42,569 bases of DNA from a virus (Duplodnaviria; Heunggongvirae; Uroviricota; Caudoviricetes), in IMG/VR virus record IMGVR_UViG_2870469529_000003, positions 1 through 42,569 of that record; one strand, 5' to 3'. Positions within the stretch are counted from its first letter, which is position 1. Each line of letters starts with the position of its first letter. Made by a program: the position numbers and the translations under genes. Below the pieces are notes generated by a model. The model ran no database searches, was not told where the DNA came from, and saw nothing but the letters and a program-made list of their open reading frames with translations. Positions 4,454 to 10,347 of this stretch are shown one piece after another.

Positions 4454-6382
4454 TTAACTTGTAAAAACATTAACTAGCGTTATCTTTCCGCCTGGACGTT
4501 TATATATATAGCTATATCTATCATTATCCGGGGAAATTATTGTCTGACTGCTGTATTCTATGGCTAACATCGGTGTATTAATAGTGTACTCATTGTCTGC
4601 ATAAATGGCATATGAATCACTTTGTTCTGCCTTAAATACACAAGCAGCACCGATAGTACATCTGGTACTTGGTGATAATGTTCTGATAGCTGCTTTGTTT
4701 TCAGTGCCAGAATCAGAGTTTGTACCCCAGTTATTAAACTCAACTGCATCTATGGTCAATGAGCATTCATCACCCAATACTATTGGATTATTATTTACGC
4801 CTCTAATACTGCCAGCAGAAAATGACATAGATGTAGAATTAGTTGCATTAAGGAAGTTATAGGTACGTCGACTGGGTGTGCTGTATTCTCCCATGCCAAG
4901 TGCATCAAAAGAAGACATAACAAAACCATTAACTTTATCAGCCCTTATAGCTGTCATGTTAGTATTCAATGCGGTTGATGCGTGAACAAAATGAGCGTTA
5001 GATATTTGCACAGATTCTACTTTACGTACTGAGTTTCCGTACAGTGCTAAAATCGGGATAGATACTCCTGAAGTATTAGTTGTCTCACCAATATAAATAT
5101 TACTAAGCGCGGTATTTATATGATTTGTTGAAGTATCTTGTGGCTCTAAAGCTATAGCTCCAATATCATATCCTCCATTGCAAAATATATTGCTAGCTCG
5201 ATTGCCACCGGCTGATAACCTTAATGGGCAGCTTCCTCCGTACACTTCCACAGTGTCTAGAACAGAGTCGCTGTACACACGTATGCCACCTCCCGTTGCA
5301 CGGATTGAGATATCTGATGCATCGGTAGCTTCGCAATAAATATCTCGAAATCTTGCAAGTCCTTGACCGTCATAGATAAACCATGTATTGAATCTCTTGC
5401 CAGTTAACTTCTCGTAATACCACCCAGCACCGCGAGTATGCAGTATGGCGTGATTGCACCTCCACTCCCCGTCGAACTGGATGTTTTTGAACTTAATGCT
5501 GTCCTGGCCATCATTAGACTCACCGGAACTAAAGATAAAGTTCTGATTATCATTTAGTGGTTTTATTACGGTAGTGCCAGTATATGCCTGATTAGCGCCC
5601 TGACCTAAAAATGTCAGGCCTTGGGTATGTCCGGGTATAGTGCAGGGTGACATTCTAAGCTCTCCTTTTGGGAGAATAATGTGTCGCACGCCAGCATCTA
5701 TAGCTCTCAGTATTGCTGGGGTTTGGTCAGCAATATGAACTCCACCACCATAGTTTTCAATGTGATCTGAAACAGGTTCTTTTTTCCAGTTGGTATCTAC
5801 TGTCGGTGTAGTGGGAACCATTGAACCTGGTGTGATTTCCCCCTTGTATGAGTAGTATTCATTATTAAATTTGAATGCCTGTAGCGCAGAGTGCAATGGT
5901 GAATTGCTACCAAAATATCCAGATGGAATAAATGGATGCAAATCATATTGCTGTAATTCAAATAGTTTTATTGCATTATCAAGCGTAGAATCTTCATATC
6001 CAACAAGTGAGGCCCCTTCAGGACCAGATAACTCTTTCCTTAGCTGATCAGGATCATACTTCAGCACATTAGGAAAATAGAACTGCTGTGCACCATACGC
6101 ATCATAAACAGCCATAGAATGGCCTTGCACGGTAACGAATTTGGCAATCTGTCCGTTATATACCGGATAACCAGCAGCGTTAATGATGATTGGTTGAGAA
6201 ACAGGAACGTGAGAGCCGTCTTCGTTCTCCACATAAACCTGAATCTGGTTTTCTGGATTTACCGGATCAGTGTCAATTTTACCGATATAAATTTTACCAT
6301 TGGCTACGGCTTTAAAAGAACGCGCCATAGTGAAGAGTTGCGATGGCATTGATACGATCACATTGGCTGTAATGTCTGTCAT
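4454..6382 (-). CDS. Tailspike protein (P22 gp9-like N-terminal head-binding domain, divergent receptor-binding domain)
   Basis: N-terminus [11 protein letters not shown]...[14 protein letters not shown]...LKYDPDQ matches the P22 tailspike head-binding domain; the remainder is a different beta-helix-type domain. Confidence 0.85.
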
Positions 6383-6439
6383 TTAATTTGCTCCAGATAC
6401 AAGGAATCACCGCAGCATGGCTACGGCAATGCGTCATTG

Positions 6440-6454
6440 AGACCACAGTGGTCT
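6440..6454. promoter_or_regulatory. Candidate Mnt operator, perfect 7-1-7 palindrome AGACCACAGTGGTCT
   Basis: Perfect dyad in the 135-bp gap between tailspike start and mnt start; same architecture as the symmetric P22 Mnt operator. Confidence 0.5.
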
Positions 6455-6517
6455 TATTGTGGATATAACCAGTAGATCATATGATGCCGATCCACTTACA
6501 AAAGTGAGGCATCAAGA

Positions 6518-6769
6518 ATGGGAAGAGATGACCCGCAATTTAATCTGCGGCTACCTTACGAATTAAAGGAAAAACTAAAACAGCGAGCCAAATCCAATGG
6601 CCGCTCTCTTAATTCAGAATTAGTTCAGATAGTGACTGATGCTGTATCAAAGCCATCCAAAATTTCAGGCTATCGAGACGATGCGGAACGCATCGCTGAT
6701 GAGCAGTCTGAACTTGTTAAGAAGATGGTGTTTGATACGCTGAAGGATTTGTACAAAAAACCCACCTGA
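6518..6769 (+). CDS. mnt: Mnt-like ribbon-helix-helix repressor (83 aa)
   Basis: MGRDDPQFNLRLPYELKEKLKQRAKSNGRSLNSELVQIV... is an Arc/Mnt-type RHH; same length and C-terminal tail (DAERIADEQSELVKKMVFDTLKDLYKK) as I recall for P22 Mnt. Confidence 0.8.
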   Translation: MGRDDPQFNLRLPYELKEKLKQRAKSNGRSLNSELVQIVTDAVSKPSKISGYRDDAERIADEQSELVKKMVFDTLKDLYKKPT

Positions 6770-6780
6770 CGGTGGGTTTC
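6750..6780. terminator. Bidirectional terminator hairpin between convergent mnt and the 322-aa gene
   Basis: AAAAAACCCACC-TGAC-GGTGGGTTTCAT: stem flanked by an A-run on one side and T-run on the other. Confidence 0.55.
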
Positions 6781-6784
6781 ATAA

Positions 6785-7753
6785 TTAGATTTCTGGTTTC
6801 ATTCTTCCGAAAACCTTTTCTATTCCTTTTTCGTATTCTTCTCTTGTCTCACTCATCGCTGCGACACCAAGAAGCTTACCGATATGCTGACGCAAAGCCT
6901 TGACACCAATTTCAGAAAGGAACAGATGCAACTTATCAGATTGTTTTCCGTTCTCGTCTCGGCTGGCTCTAATTTGTTCAAGGATTTTACCTTTACTCTT
7001 TGCTAGCGGGGTGTATATCTGCATGTTGGTTAGCTGCCCAAAACGAATAGGCCGTCCTTTCTCTGGCCTATTCAGGCCGTACAGTCGATACCACTCCTCG
7101 TATAGCTCATCTGGAAATTCCTTTTCATATTGACGAGCCTCTTCACGAACAAACGCTTTGAACTCGTCAATGACAGCCTGAACTTCTGGACGATAACCAG
7201 CAAGCGCATACGCAACCCCCTTAATTCCCGCCTTAGCGGAGGCATTAATAAGTCTCTGTGCTGCGGCGGCTGCCTTTAACCGTGATTGTGGTAGATCGTC
7301 ATTATCTTTGGCTTCTATTAGTGCCCTACCAATATCAACAATTGCTGTAATGTCATAACCTAACGCTTGATGAACGGTTTTAGACTTCGAAGTAAGTTGA
7401 AATTTATAGGGATTTTCCATTTTTCGCTGCAATTCTAGATCTCGGTATTTGCTCATATACTGAGCGCCAAGCAGTTGATCTAAATCCCTGGCATGTTCAC
7501 CAATCCCTAGCAACTGAGATAATCCAGTTTTCGTAACAACGACAGTTTTCGACTCGTCATCCAGTACATAACATTCAGCGTCAATGCCAAAATCATCTAA
7601 AAAGTTACCACGATGAGTTGCCCTGAGAATCTTACTTTTCCATCTTGCAGCAGCTGCTTTCTTTGCTATTTCAGAACGCTGCTCTTTAGTCAGCGACTTT
7701 GCGCGAGCGATCCCGCCCTTAGCTTTCCCTTCGCCACTTTTCTTTTCAGTCAT
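6785..7753 (-). CDS. Hypothetical protein (322 aa from MTEKKSG...), basic N-terminal segment, function unknown; occupies the immI/sieA cargo slot
   Basis: Long ORF; plausible start at 7753 preceded by AAAGG; N-terminus GGIARAKSLTKEQRSEIAKKAAAARW looks like a DNA-binding motif; own promoter upstream. Confidence 0.7.
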   Translation of the reverse strand: MTEKKSGEGKAKGGIARAKSLTKEQRSEIAKKAAAARWKSKILRATHRGNFLDDFGIDAECYVLDDESKTVVVTKTGLSQLLGIGEHARDLDQLLGAQYMSKYRDLELQRKMENPYKFQLTSKSKTVHQALGYDITAIVDIGRALIEAKDNDDLPQSRLKAAAAAQRLINASAKAGIKGVAYALAGYRPEVQAVIDEFKAFVREEARQYEKEFPDELYEEWYRLYGLNRPEKGRPIRFGQLTNMQIYTPLAKSKGKILEQIRASRDENGKQSDKLHLFLSEIGVKALRQHIGKLLGVAAMSETREEYEKGIEKVFGRMKPEI

Positions 7754-7754
7754 A

Positions 7755-7844
7755 ATGCAAGCACCTTTGTTGTGATGTATGCTTGCATTATATGCACTGT
7801 ACACACATACAAGCAAGCATAAAACTAAAACAAAATGCTTGCAT
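7755..7844 (-). promoter_or_regulatory. Promoter (-35 TTGCTT, 18-nt spacer, -10 TATAAT) bracketed by two inverted-repeat pairs of the 9-10-bp motif ATGCAAGCA / ATGCTTGCAT
   Basis: Motif copies at ~7755-7763, 7779-7788, 7812-7820 and 7835-7844 in alternating orientation; perfect TATAAT on the minus strand at ~7787-7792. Confidence 0.5.
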
Positions 7845-7909
7845 TACAACCGCGCTACTCCAACTACACATTATCATCTGGTATCCTGCTCAAAACTAAG
7901 GAGGTTGGT

Positions 7910-8098
7910 GTGAAGAAAAAATTTGTAAACGTTGCAAAGTGCGCAATTTTTATATTTTTTATGACCTTTTACGGATTTAGTGCCGGAGAAGGTTTCGATC
8001 GTGATGCCAATGCATTCAGTTTCTTTTGTCTGTCTATAGTGGTCATAATTGTATGGGTGGAGTTAAAGCAAACATTGTTTCATGTGCTAGGGAAATAA
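7910..8098 (+). CDS. Small hydrophobic (probably membrane) protein, 62 aa from a GTG start
   Basis: AGGAGG 5 nt upstream of GTG at 7910; sequence VKKKFVNVAKCAIFIFFMTFYGF...SFFCLSIVVIIVWVEL has two hydrophobic segments; transcribed divergently from the late operon. Confidence 0.4.
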   Translation: MKKKFVNVAKCAIFIFFMTFYGFSAGEGFDRDANAFSFFCLSIVVIIVWVELKQTLFHVLGK

Positions 8099-8115
8099 CC
8101 ATCCATGGCTTTCCG

Positions 8116-10347
8116 TTACTTCTGGTTATCATCACTGTTCATCCAGTACATGATGCCTAGCCTTGATATGGTTTTCTTATCTGATTCTGGAAGTGAGTTG
8201 TAAAACGAGCGCCAAGCAGAAGAGCGTCTTACAGTTGTATCAACGATGCTTTCTGGTGCTTGTTTTACTGCCAGCCTTGCTGCTTTCTGGAATTCTGGTG
8301 AGCTAATTAGCTTTTCTGCAGATTCAATTGATTCAGCGCCGCCCATCGCCCTGATTTTGCTGGCGACTTTTGCCCCAATTTCTGACCCAGCAACAGCACC
8401 TACTGCACTGAACGGTCCTGACACAGTTGAACCAACCGCAGTGCCAATGCGTTGGGCATGGTTAGCAACAAATTCATTTGCCGCAGTGACGCGATTAAAC
8501 CGTTTGACGAACTCGTTTAGTCTTCCTGTAGTTATCTCGTAAGATTTTGCGTCTTTGATAGCCTTTGCGACCTTATATACATCGTTCAGACCTGACATAG
8601 TCTCTTTTGGTAAATGTCGGGCAAGATTGCGCATCTGCCCGTTTGCTAACATGTTTTGATACCAGTCAGCAAACCCTGCAGGATTAAAATCAGCGCCACG
8701 TTTTCCGTTCGAAAGCATATCCCGAAGACCTGTTCCCAGTAGCTCGGTTCTTAGCTTCCTGGACGGCGTGTTTTGCATCAATTCACGAAATCCTTTGGCA
8801 TCGCCTTTCGACATTGCCTGTAGTGCTGTAGTTGCTTTGCGAGAAACATCACCGTTCAGCGTTCTGCCAGTTAGATTAATCATTTGCTCTTCCATGCTTT
8901 TTCGCATCTGAACAAGCCTCTGAGCAACTTCAAAATCACGTAATGCATTTGTCTCTGACAGCGCCGCCTTTTGATCATCGGCGAGCGAACCGTAAAGCCT
9001 CGATAAAGCAGCGCGATCAGCATCTTTATATGGTCCAGAATTCTTATGAAGTGCATCACCAACAAGTCGTCGTTGCTTATTGAGATTTGCATAAGTTAAT
9101 GCGCCGTTCTTGCCTGGATTAACTGCCCGAAAGACTCTCTTTTCAATAGGGTCAAGGTTTTTCATCCCGCCAAGATCTTCTGCCACCTGTTTGAGCATTG
9201 ACCTTGTTGATGGCGCATCAATTTTTGCACCTGCAGGCATCGCCTTTTCAACATTGCGATAAAGCTGGTCGCTTCGTTTCATCAGCGCAGACATTCTTCC
9301 ATTGACCGTATCAATAAACTTGTCGCTCATACCAAGAGCATCTTTTGCACCGGAAACGCGATCAATTATCTCCCCCGCACCCTGTGCTAGCTGCCTGATT
9401 GCTTCATTTTCCTGCACCTGTAGAGCAGAACCCGCACGGGACTTGATTGCTTGCTCAACTGCCTTGTATTGCTCGTTCCCGGAAAAGTGTGAAGGGAGTA
9501 ATGAATCAACATTAAGCCTTTCAGCAGACTCCAGAACTTCAGCCTGAGGATTGATATCTAGTTCATCAAGCGATGAAGCGAGATTTGGCCTTTTTTGTGC
9601 TGCTACTGTGCGAACGACTTCCTCTGGGTTCCTCGTCGCAGGAGTCATTGGTACACCTTGTGCTGCTCTTGCCTCTGCGGCATGAACCGCAGGATTTGTT
9701 GCCTCTGCGGCATCACCGGAGAATGGTGATGTTTCTGTTGGCGCAGTGGTCGCTCTCTGTGCAGATGTTTTATTGCCACTAATTATATTTGATGCACCAC
9801 GAACACCACGGGTAACGCCATTTATCAGGCCATGCGTAGCAATGTTAAGTCCGGCATTAATAGCGGCATTTTCGGCAAAATCACCCCGTTGATTCGCCGC
9901 GTCAGCGAGAGAACCAATGACCATGTTTCCAGCTACACCTGCTCCAGGAACAAGATAACCGCCTATTGACTCTCCAGCTTGCGCATAAGGGTCTGTCGGT
10001 CGATAGACAGGGCGATAAACATCATCCAAAACCTTGGGGCCACCAAGCCCCTGGCTGATTGCATTAATCAGACTTGCGCCACCCTGTAATACGTCAAATG
10101 GTATGTTTACCAGACCACGACCAGCCTGTTCTGCAATTTGCCCTGCACTTTGACCACCAGTGAGCCAATCGCCAGCTTGTTGCATCAATGATGGTTCTTC
10201 CCGTGTTGGTGCATTATTGGCCTGATTAACTGTTTGTTGCTGAACAGCCTGACCAGCAAAATACTCATCAATGGCGGTGCCAATATCTTCCGTGCTCGTA
10301 CCATCAGGGAAGGTAAATGTCTTACCGTTTGCAGTTACTTTCATCAT
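8116..10347 (-). CDS. Ejection (internal virion) protein, P22 gp16-like, 743 aa
   Basis: Position in the P22 gene order (20, 16, cargo, 9) and Ala/Gly/Gln-rich composition typical of E-proteins. Confidence 0.65.

Follow-up and report, generated by a model that had tools for sequence, protein, structure and literature searches.

A four-box array over the promoter of a P63C-domain gene in a P22-like prophage and its probable role as operators

The P63C cassette and its promoter region

In the window (the whole stretch of P22-like prophage DNA analysed, 42,569 nucleotides), a P63C-domain gene lies between mnt and a gene-16-like ejection gene, forming a self-contained cassette that carries both its promoter and its terminator. 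The 322-aa product matched Pfam PF10546 (P63C) over residues 199–286 with 52.7 bits, against a gathering threshold of 26.1. It belongs to PHROG 2384, of function unknown, and has 1682 homologs; the P63C domain was reportedly defined in a 2002 paper. The features of the cassette are listed below, numbered on the window.

6753..6779, minus strand: terminator hairpin CCCACC-GTCA-GGTGGG followed by TTTTTT, directly past the stop codon; read from the sequence
6785..7753, minus strand: 322-aa P63C-domain gene, the regulated gene and also the proposed regulator
7637..7729, minus strand: region coding for the basic two-helix module, residues 9–39, GKAKGGIARAKSLTKEQRSEIAKKAAAARWK; candidate box-reading head
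7753–7751, minus strand: start codon ATG of the 322-aa gene
7755..7764, minus strand: box 4, gene-sense GTGCTTGCAT, occupying the gap between Shine-Dalgarno and ATG
7765..7769, minus strand: Shine-Dalgarno AAAGG, abutting box 4 directly
7779..7788, minus strand: box 3, gene-sense ATGCAAGCAT, spanning the edge of the -10 and the predicted transcription start
7787..7792, minus strand: -10 hexamer TATAAT, sharing its final two bases with the beginning of box 3
7795..7814, plus strand: weak LexA-box-like CACTGTACACACATACAAGC in the -35/-10 spacer, probably degenerate here
7816–7811, minus strand: -35 hexamer TTGCTT, with an 18-nt spacer to the -10
7811..7820, minus strand: box 2, gene-sense ATGCTTGCTT, containing the -35 hexamer
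7835..7844, minus strand: box 1, the distal one, lying 24 nt upstream of box 2; gene-sense ATGCAAGCAT

The N-terminal module, with helices predicted at residues 12–20 and 23–38, follows the consensus KGGxARAxxLTxEQRSEIAKKAAxARW, a motif present in a single copy in the window; no Pfam or NCBIfam model matched it. PHROGs, NCBIfam and PADLOC gave no functional name to the module, to the P63C protein or to its 62-aa neighbour, and at E ≤ 0.1 neither the P63C protein nor the neighbouring 62-aa ORF matched a PADLOC defence model. No solved structural relative of the P63C protein was found, and the literature searches returned nothing on P63C function, regulation or the box motif and nothing relevant on ISPa14 and IS1-family passenger genes. 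A preliminary description of the region had proposed a toxic or abortive-infection effector, conditionally induced; this is unsupported, as the PADLOC, structure and literature searches provided no evidence of a toxicity or defence role.

Comparison with vB_EcoP-611R6 placed the boundaries of the cassette at ~6755 and 7912, the match stopping exactly at the start codon of the neighbouring gene (7912). Different genes occupy the same slot in phage epsilon34, where a Rho-independent terminator is annotated at the position equivalent to 6753–6779; in the window this terminator is common to the P63C cassette and the convergent mnt gene. Own promoter and terminator, mosaic boundaries and alternative cargo in other phages are the hallmarks of a phage moron. 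In ST104, SI8, Midgardsormr38 and Javan484, the cassette is located directly downstream of the repressor gene.

The promoter had been described as near-consensus, which holds for the -10, a perfect TATAAT, and is overstated for the -35: TTGCTT agrees with TTGACA in only 3/6 positions, and a consensus scan called neither the promoter nor the 6753–6779 terminator. Both elements were read from the sequence, with the backing of conservation. From the position of the -10, transcription would start at ~7780. A divergent promoter for the 62-aa ORF, with box 1 as its -35, was rejected: where the -10 would be needed the window reads AACTAC, whereas the transposon relatives described below do have one. 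The LexA-like site was scored with a position weight matrix for the CTGT-N8-ACAG 20-mer, built from known E. coli sites. The window site reached 10.9 bits, whereas the lowest-scoring training site had 15.0, and it ranked seventh within the window; LexA control of this copy was rejected as weak. A LexA box is plausible in some relatives, with sites at the same position scoring 15.8–18.2 bits (L059, L066, L081, L079, L027, L078 and L029).

Each of the four boxes is a 10-bp quasi-palindrome ATGC(AA/TT)GCAT (motif ATGCWWGCAT). Two inverted-repeat pairs, with 9–10-bp arms and spacers of about 14–15 nt, had been noted previously, and all four arms are present. The repeat search recovered the second pair, boxes 1 and 2, as a perfect 8/8 inverted repeat (7813–7820 and 7835–7842) with the expected 14-nt spacer; the first pair, boxes 3 and 4, proved longer, a perfect 12/12 inverted repeat (7752–7763 and 7780–7791) separated by 16 nt. 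Their placement was also correctly described: the first pair covers the predicted +1 (box 3, ~7780) and has its 3′ arm, box 4, between AAAGG and ATG, and the second overlaps the -35, which falls within box 2. A 12-nt direct repeat ATGCTTGCATTA occurs at 7779 and 7835, and the entire box region forms an imperfect palindrome with 34-nt arms.

Exact TGC(AA/TT)GCA octamers occurred three times in the 42.5-kb window, all inside one 90-bp stretch, compared with about 3.4 expected, scattered window-wide, in dinucleotide-preserving shuffles. Allowing one mismatch to ATGCWWGCAT, we found four sites at the array and, elsewhere in the window, scattered single-mismatch sites at chance rate. The motif is therefore not a generic repeat scattered through the prophage, a possibility that the preliminary description had proposed to check. 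Four GC(AA/TT)GC hexamers within 100 bp were attained in 3/300 such shuffles. This cluster statistic is modest by itself; the decisive evidence is the conservation of the four boxes in 121/155 related loci.

Conservation of the boxes and their link with the N-terminal module

The 121 loci, corresponding to 96 unique sequences, keep the order GCAAGC, ~24 nt, GCTTGC, ~32 nt, GCAAGC, ~24 nt, GCTTGC, start codon, a layout being counted as kept when all four boxes were present and no hexamer deviated at more than one position. Spacings among them range over 22–25, 30–34 and 22–25 nt, and the spacers are otherwise unalignable. Hosts include Enterobacterales, Beta-, Alpha- and Deltaproteobacteria, Acidobacteriota, Myxococcota, Firmicutes and Abditibacteriota, and retention of the boxes across these phyla rules out a host-specific or P22-specific factor. 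Over the 96 unique sequences the consensus of box 1 is AATGCAAGCAT, and the GCTTGC hexamer of box 2 is 98–100% conserved. Among 16 close relatives, 2/40 columns vary in the boxes versus 20/77 outside (Fisher p = 0.006).

The register of the boxes with the expression signals is fixed: -35 in box 2, TAnAAT against box 3, Shine-Dalgarno against box 4. The -35 of the relatives is TTGCAT or TTGCTT, 17–18 nt from the -10, and the TAnAAT next to box 3 is retained at T 84%, A 90%, A 63%, A 88% and T 95% (96 unique sequences). The purine-rich GG adjoining box 4 is also conserved, appearing as the reverse-complement CC columns of that box, and in many distant loci the start codon overlaps box 4 (TGCTTGCATG).

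As to pairing, every core box position showed one pair type, with no compensatory change in the 96 unique sequences; about 12% of these carry an uncompensated mismatch, and the box flanks pair no better than shuffled columns. By this comparison, what is conserved is the sequence of the boxes and not their ability to pair.

Presence of the boxes was associated with the N-terminal module. When the module is present, some 7-mer recurs at least three times in the upstream 190 nt in 122/145 unique loci, the top recurring 7-mers being pieces of the box; when the module is absent, such recurrence was observed in 1/11 loci. The two also co-vary. Proteins with ..EIAKKAA..ARW are paired with GCAAGCA, including ST104 orf23, only 29% identical overall; ..ESSRKAV.. 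is paired with ACGTGCA (933W, L211 and L213), ..SESARNAA.. with GTACGCA (L212) and ..IARAAIQARW with GCAAGTATA (Acidobacteria group). In addition, the promoter-operator region and the first ~73 codons recombine as a single unit onto a gene body of 54% identity. As far as the sequences tell, box presence tracks the N-terminal module: boxes are missing from paralogs that have lost it, and an altered module, as in the 933W type, goes with different boxes; this is association and co-variation among related, non-independent sequences. It could partly reflect linkage of the promoter and the first codons.

Outside the enterobacteria, in environmental bacteria, the cassette makes up the middle of an IS1-family transposon, arranged as transposase, boxes 1–4 and P63C with the two genes divergent. 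The transposase of these relatives matched Pfam DDE_Tnp_IS1 and NCBIfam transpos_IS1; their small transposon protein had no Pfam match. Repeat search and local alignment found no inverted repeats right at the edges of the transposase by itself or of the gene pair; the transposon ends were located after mapping the extent of the conserved DNA, giving terminal inverted repeats GGTAGTGnnTCAGTTTGAA, with 8-bp target duplications in 9 loci. The divergent transposase promoter, as read from L085, L088 and L095, takes its -35, TTGCAT, from the complement of box 1. The window contains no transposase and no terminal repeat, and among the 74 viral loci the transposase was found in 0/74 and either neighbour gene in 0/74. 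A deletion between box 1 and box 3 was observed in the L032 group.

Possible functions of the array

We consider that the boxes are four operators for autorepression through the N-terminal module of the P63C protein, with a probability of roughly 0.7. The P63C protein would bind the boxes via its basic two-helix module (residues ~9–39), occupancy of the array would hide the promoter from RNA polymerase, and P63C would thereby be kept at a low, steady level in the lysogen. In the transposon relatives, boxes 1 and 2 are the -35s of back-to-back promoters, for transposase and P63C respectively, and there P63C binding would also shut down the transposase. Whatever binds the boxes must move with the cassette: the window has neither a transposase nor a second copy of the N-terminal motif and the 74 viral loci lack the neighbour genes. 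We infer binding, repression by binding and the position of the transcript start from this arrangement. The absence of any Rfam family matching the region is further support for a DNA operator.

The preliminary description had suggested a two-operator repressor site. A cis-element over the promoter, best fitted by a repressor-operator system, is retained; the division into two operators is not, the four boxes being better understood as one array. Since autorepression leads to steady low expression and not to induction, the gene is probably clamped at a low level in the lysogen, and not silent until induced. There are counter-points to autorepression by the P63C protein. For a reader that uses helices, 10 bp is a short site, and the 24-bp spacing in the pairs 1–2 and 3–4 does not amount to whole helical turns. 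The weakness of the -35 (3/6), the silent promoter scan and the failure of the module to match a Pfam or NCBIfam model belong here as well.

The alternative put forward earlier, that a hairpin in the leader RNA of the gene masks the region from ribosome site to AUG, has the 3′ arm in the right place, between Shine-Dalgarno and ATG, and the 12-bp stem of box 3 with box 4 would be stable (-16.4 kcal/mol, z = -3.5) if both arms were transcribed. However, the -10 overlaps the 5′ arm in 96/96 unique sequences; given this conserved -10 abutting box 3 and the predicted start at ~7780, the 5′ arm lies outside the gene's own predicted mRNA. Folding of the leader, proposed as a check, accordingly gave an essentially unstructured transcript from ~7780 (-2.8 kcal/mol). 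There is no covariation: compensatory changes are absent and ~12% of the sequences are mismatched. No Rfam match supports the hairpin either, a scan of 7500–8150 returning only chance microRNA-like long hairpins far below gathering scores, and boxes 1 and 2, upstream of the promoter, are equally conserved. Occlusion of the gene's own mRNA by a hairpin is thus very unlikely, and such a hairpin would be possible only in read-through transcripts.

For read-through transcripts, folding may have a function of its own: RNAs entering from upstream would carry all four boxes and bury the start codon, the gene's own transcript remaining open. The sources would be late-operon read-through in the phage and outside transcription in the transposon, and such insulation could coexist with operators. 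The read-through RNA 7860–7735 (minus strand) is predicted to form one long hairpin, with the pairs box 1:box 4 and box 2:box 3, at -48.1 kcal/mol (z = -5.1; 0/200 shuffles equally stable), compared with only -2.8 kcal/mol for the own transcript. The gene shares its strand with the gene-16-like and tailspike genes, so that late read-through is expected from the established organization of the P22 late operon. Against this, pairing alone needs no single invariant sequence for all four boxes across phyla, and compensatory changes are again absent, with ~12% of sequences carrying an uncompensated mismatch. Moreover, many relatives are located directly behind a terminator (GGTCGCAGAGATGCGGCCTTTTTT), so little read-through would arrive, and the fold is an automatic by-product of identical sites in alternating orientation. 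We consider insulation by fold-back to be rather unlikely.

Proteins other than P63C were also considered. A host or helper-phage factor acting on the boxes, of SlyA/MarR type, Mnt or a phage repressor, would agree with the GCAAGC core that the boxes share with the SlyA/MarR-type consensus, TTAGCAAGCTAA, and with the position of the gene adjoining mnt. But the same boxes recur across many phyla and in settings as unrelated as transposons, podovirus and siphovirus prophages, and chromosomes, the motif is missing from the remainder of the window, its immunity region included, and box sequence shifts with the gene's own N-terminal module, so that there is little likelihood of such a factor. More improbable still is that the boxes are transposon relics, such as internal sites for transposase binding or recombination, that do nothing in the phage. 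The IS1-family core position of the cassette, with its terminal inverted repeats and 8-bp target duplications, and the deletion in the L032 group would be in line with relics, yet the boxes are under purifying selection in transposase-free phage and enterobacterial loci (0/74 viral loci with transposase), their register with -35, -10 and ribosome site is fixed, and the terminal repeats GGTAGTGnnTCAGTTTGAA are unrelated to them.

Relation to known systems and significance

In the Tn3 res/TnpR system, a multi-site array lies between divergent transposase and accessory genes, and one protein represses both promoters. The IS1-family relatives show the same layout, transposase-boxes 1–4-P63C. Unlike TnpR, P63C has no similarity to serine recombinases (its only Pfam match is PF10546), with no indication of a recombination role, and the P63C cassette, unlike Tn3 res/TnpR, also stands alone in phages in the absence of transposase. 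Similarly, IS1 InsA binds the terminal inverted repeats via a zinc finger and a helix-turn-helix and down-regulates the transposase promoter. It resembles the P63C protein as an element-encoded DNA-binding repressor, which P63C is proposed to be, of an IS1-family transposase promoter; the sites here are internal, unlike those of InsA, and the candidate binder, a passenger protein, is not related to InsA.

Lambda OR/CI and P22 immI Mnt/Arc offer arrays of short palindromic sites over -35, -10 and transcript start that serve autoregulation. They are alike in their promoter-overlapping sites, and the mnt gene of the window is an immediate neighbour of the cassette; they differ in box sequence, in the 24/32/24-bp geometry and in the proposed reader, a 30-residue module on a 322-aa protein. 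In IS10/Tn10, outside transcripts fold over the translation start, whereas the 5′ arm is missing from the transcript that the element itself makes, a contrast reproduced here by the folds of read-through and own transcripts. Unlike in IS10/Tn10, the arms here are copies of a conserved sequence-specific motif and show no covariation; folding is probably incidental, or else a secondary function.

Morons are known from lambdoid and P22-like phages, among them those of the sieA/hkc slot between gene 16 and mnt. The P63C cassette is the same kind of promoter-gene-terminator unit between conserved late-region genes, with sharp mosaic boundaries; unlike other morons, its cargo is P63C with a conserved putative operator array, derived from or shared with a transposon.

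A broader proposal is advanced tentatively and at less than even odds: a new DNA-reading module and its target would form a mobile cassette, a regulator of an IS1-family transposon captured repeatedly by temperate phages. The 10-bp target would be near-invariant because protein and operator move as one mobile cassette, which would have begun as, or still be, a regulator shutting off the divergent transposase promoter. Captures by phages would have occurred at positions expressed in lysogeny, beside mnt or downstream of the repressor gene, and in phages the P63C body may help to exclude other mobile elements or to compete with them.

The P63C family (PF10546), widespread among phages and mobile elements, is without known function. 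The locus provides a first testable handle on it, with a defined promoter, four candidate sites and a candidate 30-residue module, and the natural variants GCAAGCA, ACGTGCA, GTACGCA and GCAAGTATA would represent different specificities. A putative operator near-invariant across phyla is unusual; it would be so because protein and sites move as one, both within an IS1-family transposon and in the form of phage cassettes. This shared travel would link transposon regulation with accessory genes expressed by prophages in lysogeny.

Four boxes in register with the P63C promoter

All repeat sequences reported in the preliminary description were found in place upstream of the 322-aa gene, hereafter the P63C gene. 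The proximal pair is a perfect 12/12 inverted repeat (7752-7763 and 7780-7791, 16-nt spacer) and the distal pair a perfect 8/8 repeat (7813-7820 and 7835-7842, 14-nt spacer). A more useful description is of a single quasi-palindromic 10-mer, ATGC(AA/TT)GCAT, present four times in alternating orientation; the starts of successive hexamers are separated by 24, 32 and 24 bp:

7835-7844, minus strand, box 1
7811-7820, minus strand, box 2
7779-7788, minus strand, box 3
7755-7764, minus strand, box 4

Outside the array the motif is not repeated in the window; the 42.5 kb contain three exact TGC(AA/TT)GCA octamers, and every one falls within the array. The promoter had been called near-consensus: its -10, TATAAT, is indeed perfect, but the term is too strong since the -35, TTGCTT (18-nt spacer), matches at only 3/6 positions and a consensus scan left the promoter uncalled.

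Conservation was examined in 74 viral loci (relatives 52-100% identical) and in 80 genome loci, one genome per species (relatives 41-72% identical), from Enterobacterales, Beta-, Alpha-, Gamma- and Deltaproteobacteria, Acidobacteriota, Myxococcota, Firmicutes (Oscillospiraceae, Heliobacteriaceae), Abditibacteriota and others. The four boxes are kept, with at most one mismatch per hexamer, in 121/155 loci (96 unique sequences), at spacings of 22-25, 30-34 and 22-25 nt and with unalignable spacer sequences. Each box has the consensus AATGCAAGCAT, GCAAGCA being present at 95-100% in the 96 unique sequences. The boxes are in fixed register with the expression signals: box 2 contains the -35 (TTGCAT or TTGCTT), the last two bases of a TAnAAT motif (T 84%, A 90%, A 63%, A 88%, T 95%) are the first two of box 3, the Shine-Dalgarno GG adjoins box 4, and box 4 is followed or overlapped by the start codon. 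Within a set of 16 sequences closely related to the window, 2/40 box columns were polymorphic vs 20/77 non-box columns (p = 0.006). Seven loci (L032-L036, L038 and L041) carry boxes 3 and 4 only; compared with L030 and L039, they lack the stretch from box 1 to box 3, including box 2, -35 and -10, a deletion that apparently arose by recombination between two identical direct boxes.

In enterobacterial relatives, the -35/-10 spacer contains a LexA-like (C/T)TGT-N8-ACAG with a variable AT-rich centre. Scored with a LexA matrix derived from known E. coli sites (training range 15.0-28.3 bits), seven loci (L059, L066, L081, L079, L027, L078 and L029) reached 15.8-18.2 bits, within the training range and at the same promoter position, and SOS control is plausible in some relatives. 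It is doubtful for the P63C gene of the window, whose copy (7795-7814) scored 10.9 bits, no better than several coding-region matches there. The top match in the window (6455-6474, 14.8 bits), in the 6383-6517 intergenic region, probably arose by chance or belongs to the Pant/Pmnt operator region.

DNA sites versus RNA hairpin

An RNA hairpin occluding translation had also been proposed, and the predicted transcript does not accommodate it. As the -10 overlaps box 3, this box falls outside the mRNA (predicted start ~7780), and the resulting 47-nt leader is predicted to be unstructured (-2.8 kcal/mol, less stable than the mean of shuffled sequences). Only a single pair type was found at each core position of the 96 unique sequences, hence not one compensatory change (0 among 96), and 12% of them carry an uncompensated change of GCTTGC to GCTTAC in box 4, the most frequent variant. 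Flank pairing was no better than in shuffled columns, except for weak signals at three box 2:box 3 flank positions and one box 3:box 4 position, which relatedness of the sequences can generate. The same sequence is used in both 'hairpins', which pairing alone does not require, and Rfam gave no family match to the region. We conclude from these comparisons that what has been conserved is a DNA sequence recognised by a protein. Folding at the RNA level would be confined to read-through transcripts, such as those of the late operon on the same strand: RNA entering from upstream is predicted to make a single long hairpin (-48.1 kcal/mol, z = -5.1), with the AUG buried in it. Such a fold is a possible but unlikely secondary function of the boxes, given the lack of compensatory changes and the uncompensated box 4 variant.

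The N-terminal module as candidate reader

The phylogenetic spread of the boxes rules out a host factor as binder of the DNA sites, and their varied contexts rule out one specific to P22. Whatever binds has to move with the cassette, of which the P63C gene is the sole constant companion; the candidate is therefore the gene's own product. The evidence points to its N-terminal ~30 residues (GKAKGGIARAKSLTKEQRSEIAKKAAAARWK; predicted helices 12-20 and 23-38) as putative box reader. The window holds no second copy of this motif and no transposase.

We scored the module with an HMM of residues 9-39 and counted repeated 7-mers without bias in the upstream 190 nt. With the module, some 7-mer occurred at least three times in 122/145 unique loci, the top words all being box fragments; without it, this was seen in 1/11 loci. 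Paralogs lacking the module include those of Erwinia phage Midgardsormr38, Salmonella phage SI8 and Streptococcus phage Javan484. ST104 orf23 shows only 29% overall identity, yet retains a nearly unchanged module (KGGVARANALSAEERSAIARKAAAARW) and all four boxes. Where the second helix differs, the box sequence differs and the layout stays.

Module variants and their boxes
933W type (933W, L211, L213): module ..KESSRKAVAAKKE; boxes ACGTGCA / TGCACGT / ACGTGCATG-start
L212: module ..SESARNAALAKS; boxes GTACGCA / TGCGTAC
Acidobacteria group: module ..EIARAAIQARW; boxes TATACTTGC ... GCAAGTATA
DC1: module ..EIARAGAVARW; boxes ATGCTTGACA / ATGCTAAGCAT, third copy TGCCAAGCAT in place of TGTCAAGCA
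L083: boxes ATGCTTGACA / ATGCTAAGCAT and TGTCAAGCA
L140: module ..EIARAGAFARW; box TGTCAAGCA

Upstream of the gene and over the first ~220 nt of its coding sequence, loci L069-L076 match window 7533-7912 (88% DNA identity); they then diverge, their protein being only 52-54% identical, with a mosaic junction within the gene, after the module. The promoter-operator region and these 220 nt recombine as one block onto a gene body of only 54% identity. Linkage contributes in part to the module-box association, the sequences being related and not independent.

The distant P63C paralogs of ST104, SI8, Midgardsormr38 and Javan484 lie directly downstream of a phage repressor gene on the same strand, that of Javan484 with an integrase on its other side; the 933W paralog is in the nin region, beside roi. 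In lambda, rexAB occupies the same slot, directly after the repressor gene. Such positions are typical of lysogeny-expressed genes.

Phage and transposon settings of the cassette

The phage or prophage of the window is P22-like (Lederbergvirus-type), with these features around the P63C gene:

4454-6382, minus strand, tailspike gene (P22 head-binding domain match)
6518-6769, plus strand, Mnt repressor gene (Arc and Repressor_Mnt domains)
6753-6779, P63C strand, hairpin CCCACC-N4-GGTGGG with T-run, between the convergent mnt and P63C genes
6785-7753, minus strand, 322-aa P63C gene (PF10546, 52.7 bits; PHROG 2384, unknown function)
7910-8098, plus strand, 62-aa ORF (strong AAGGAGG ribosome site, GTG start)
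8116-10347, minus strand, 743-aa gene, counterpart of DNA-transfer (ejection) protein genes annotated there in vB_EcoP-611R6 and epsilon34

The hairpin overlaps the mnt stop codon and is absent from the output of a terminator scan of the window. Escherichia phage vB_EcoP-611R6 is the sole deposited phage sharing the P63C gene and upstream region at DNA level (98.4% identity); the shared stretch begins at ~6755 and stops exactly at 7912, where the divergent ORF has its start codon. In epsilon34, unrelated genes occupy the same slot. Given these sharp limits and the unrelated cargo, the P63C gene is, on comparative grounds, an independently acquired cassette with its own predicted promoter and hairpin/T-run terminator. 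The mnt gene directly adjoins the tailspike gene (6383-6517 intergenic), arc and ant being missing; between the two, the closest deposited phage, vB_EcoP-611R6, carries arc, a small ORF and ant. The 62-aa ORF is preceded by a leader with ribosome site (7866-7912, plus strand, CATTATCATCTGGTATCCTGCTCAAAACTAAGGAGGTTGGTGTG) that also occurs in >100 E. coli genomes and 933W, beside varied genes, and homology in related phages ends exactly at the start codon after it; it looks like a common linker where accessory genes are swapped.

In 47/80 genome loci, and 0/74 viral loci, the divergent gene across the boxes encodes an IS1-family transposase (Pfam DDE_Tnp_IS1 and Zn_ribbon_InsA; best NCBIfam match transpos_IS1, below its cut-off). 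The unit, found in many phyla, has terminal inverted repeats GGTAGTGnnTCAGTTTGAA / TTCAAACTGAnnCACTACC at its ends. After the repeat GGTAGTGnnTCAGTTTGAA come the transposase, the four boxes, P63C, a small basic protein and the other terminal repeat. Element length is 2.3-3.8 kb, longer copies having added cargo between left end and transposase; examples among L084-L152 are L085 (1974-4278), L090, L135, L127, L095, L088, L131, L100 and L132. From the terminal repeats and perfect 8-bp target duplications (nine loci), the unit is, by its sequence features, an active transposon with the cassette aboard. The small protein (73-96 aa; L085 3969-4208, minus strand; L087 3452-3685, minus strand; and equivalents) is encoded convergently, downstream of P63C. 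Its C-terminus is the same module as the P63C N-terminus (KGGKARAxKLTPEERSEIAKKAAKARW / GGxARAxxLTxEERxEIAxKAAxARW); it has thousands of metagenomic homologs (7,989 at E <= 0.001), some NCBI records saying 'histone H1', and no Pfam or NCBIfam model. A related half-box, CGCTCAAGCAT, lies in the promoters of this protein and the transposase.

On the opposite strand, box 1 of the transposon relatives (TTGCAT) is the transposase -35, with a -10, (C/T)ATAAT, 16-17 nt away (L085, L088, L095), so that boxes 1 and 2 are back-to-back -35 elements; the phage copy lost this -10 and kept box 1. The four-box element is real, functional-looking and deeply conserved. We infer that the module would recognise the boxes and that P63C would repress its own promoter through the array; binding, repression and transcript start being deduced from sequence, we give this autoregulation a probability of about 0.7, as the sequences are related and linkage feeds the association. 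The repressor-operator reading proposed at the outset fits best, as one four-site array instead of two operators. In transposon relatives, occupied boxes 1 and 2 would repress the transposase too, a layout like that of Tn3 res/TnpR, from which the protein family differs. Mechanisms of this type are familiar; what appears undescribed is the family, its module, a site so constant across phyla, and the link between transposon and phage.
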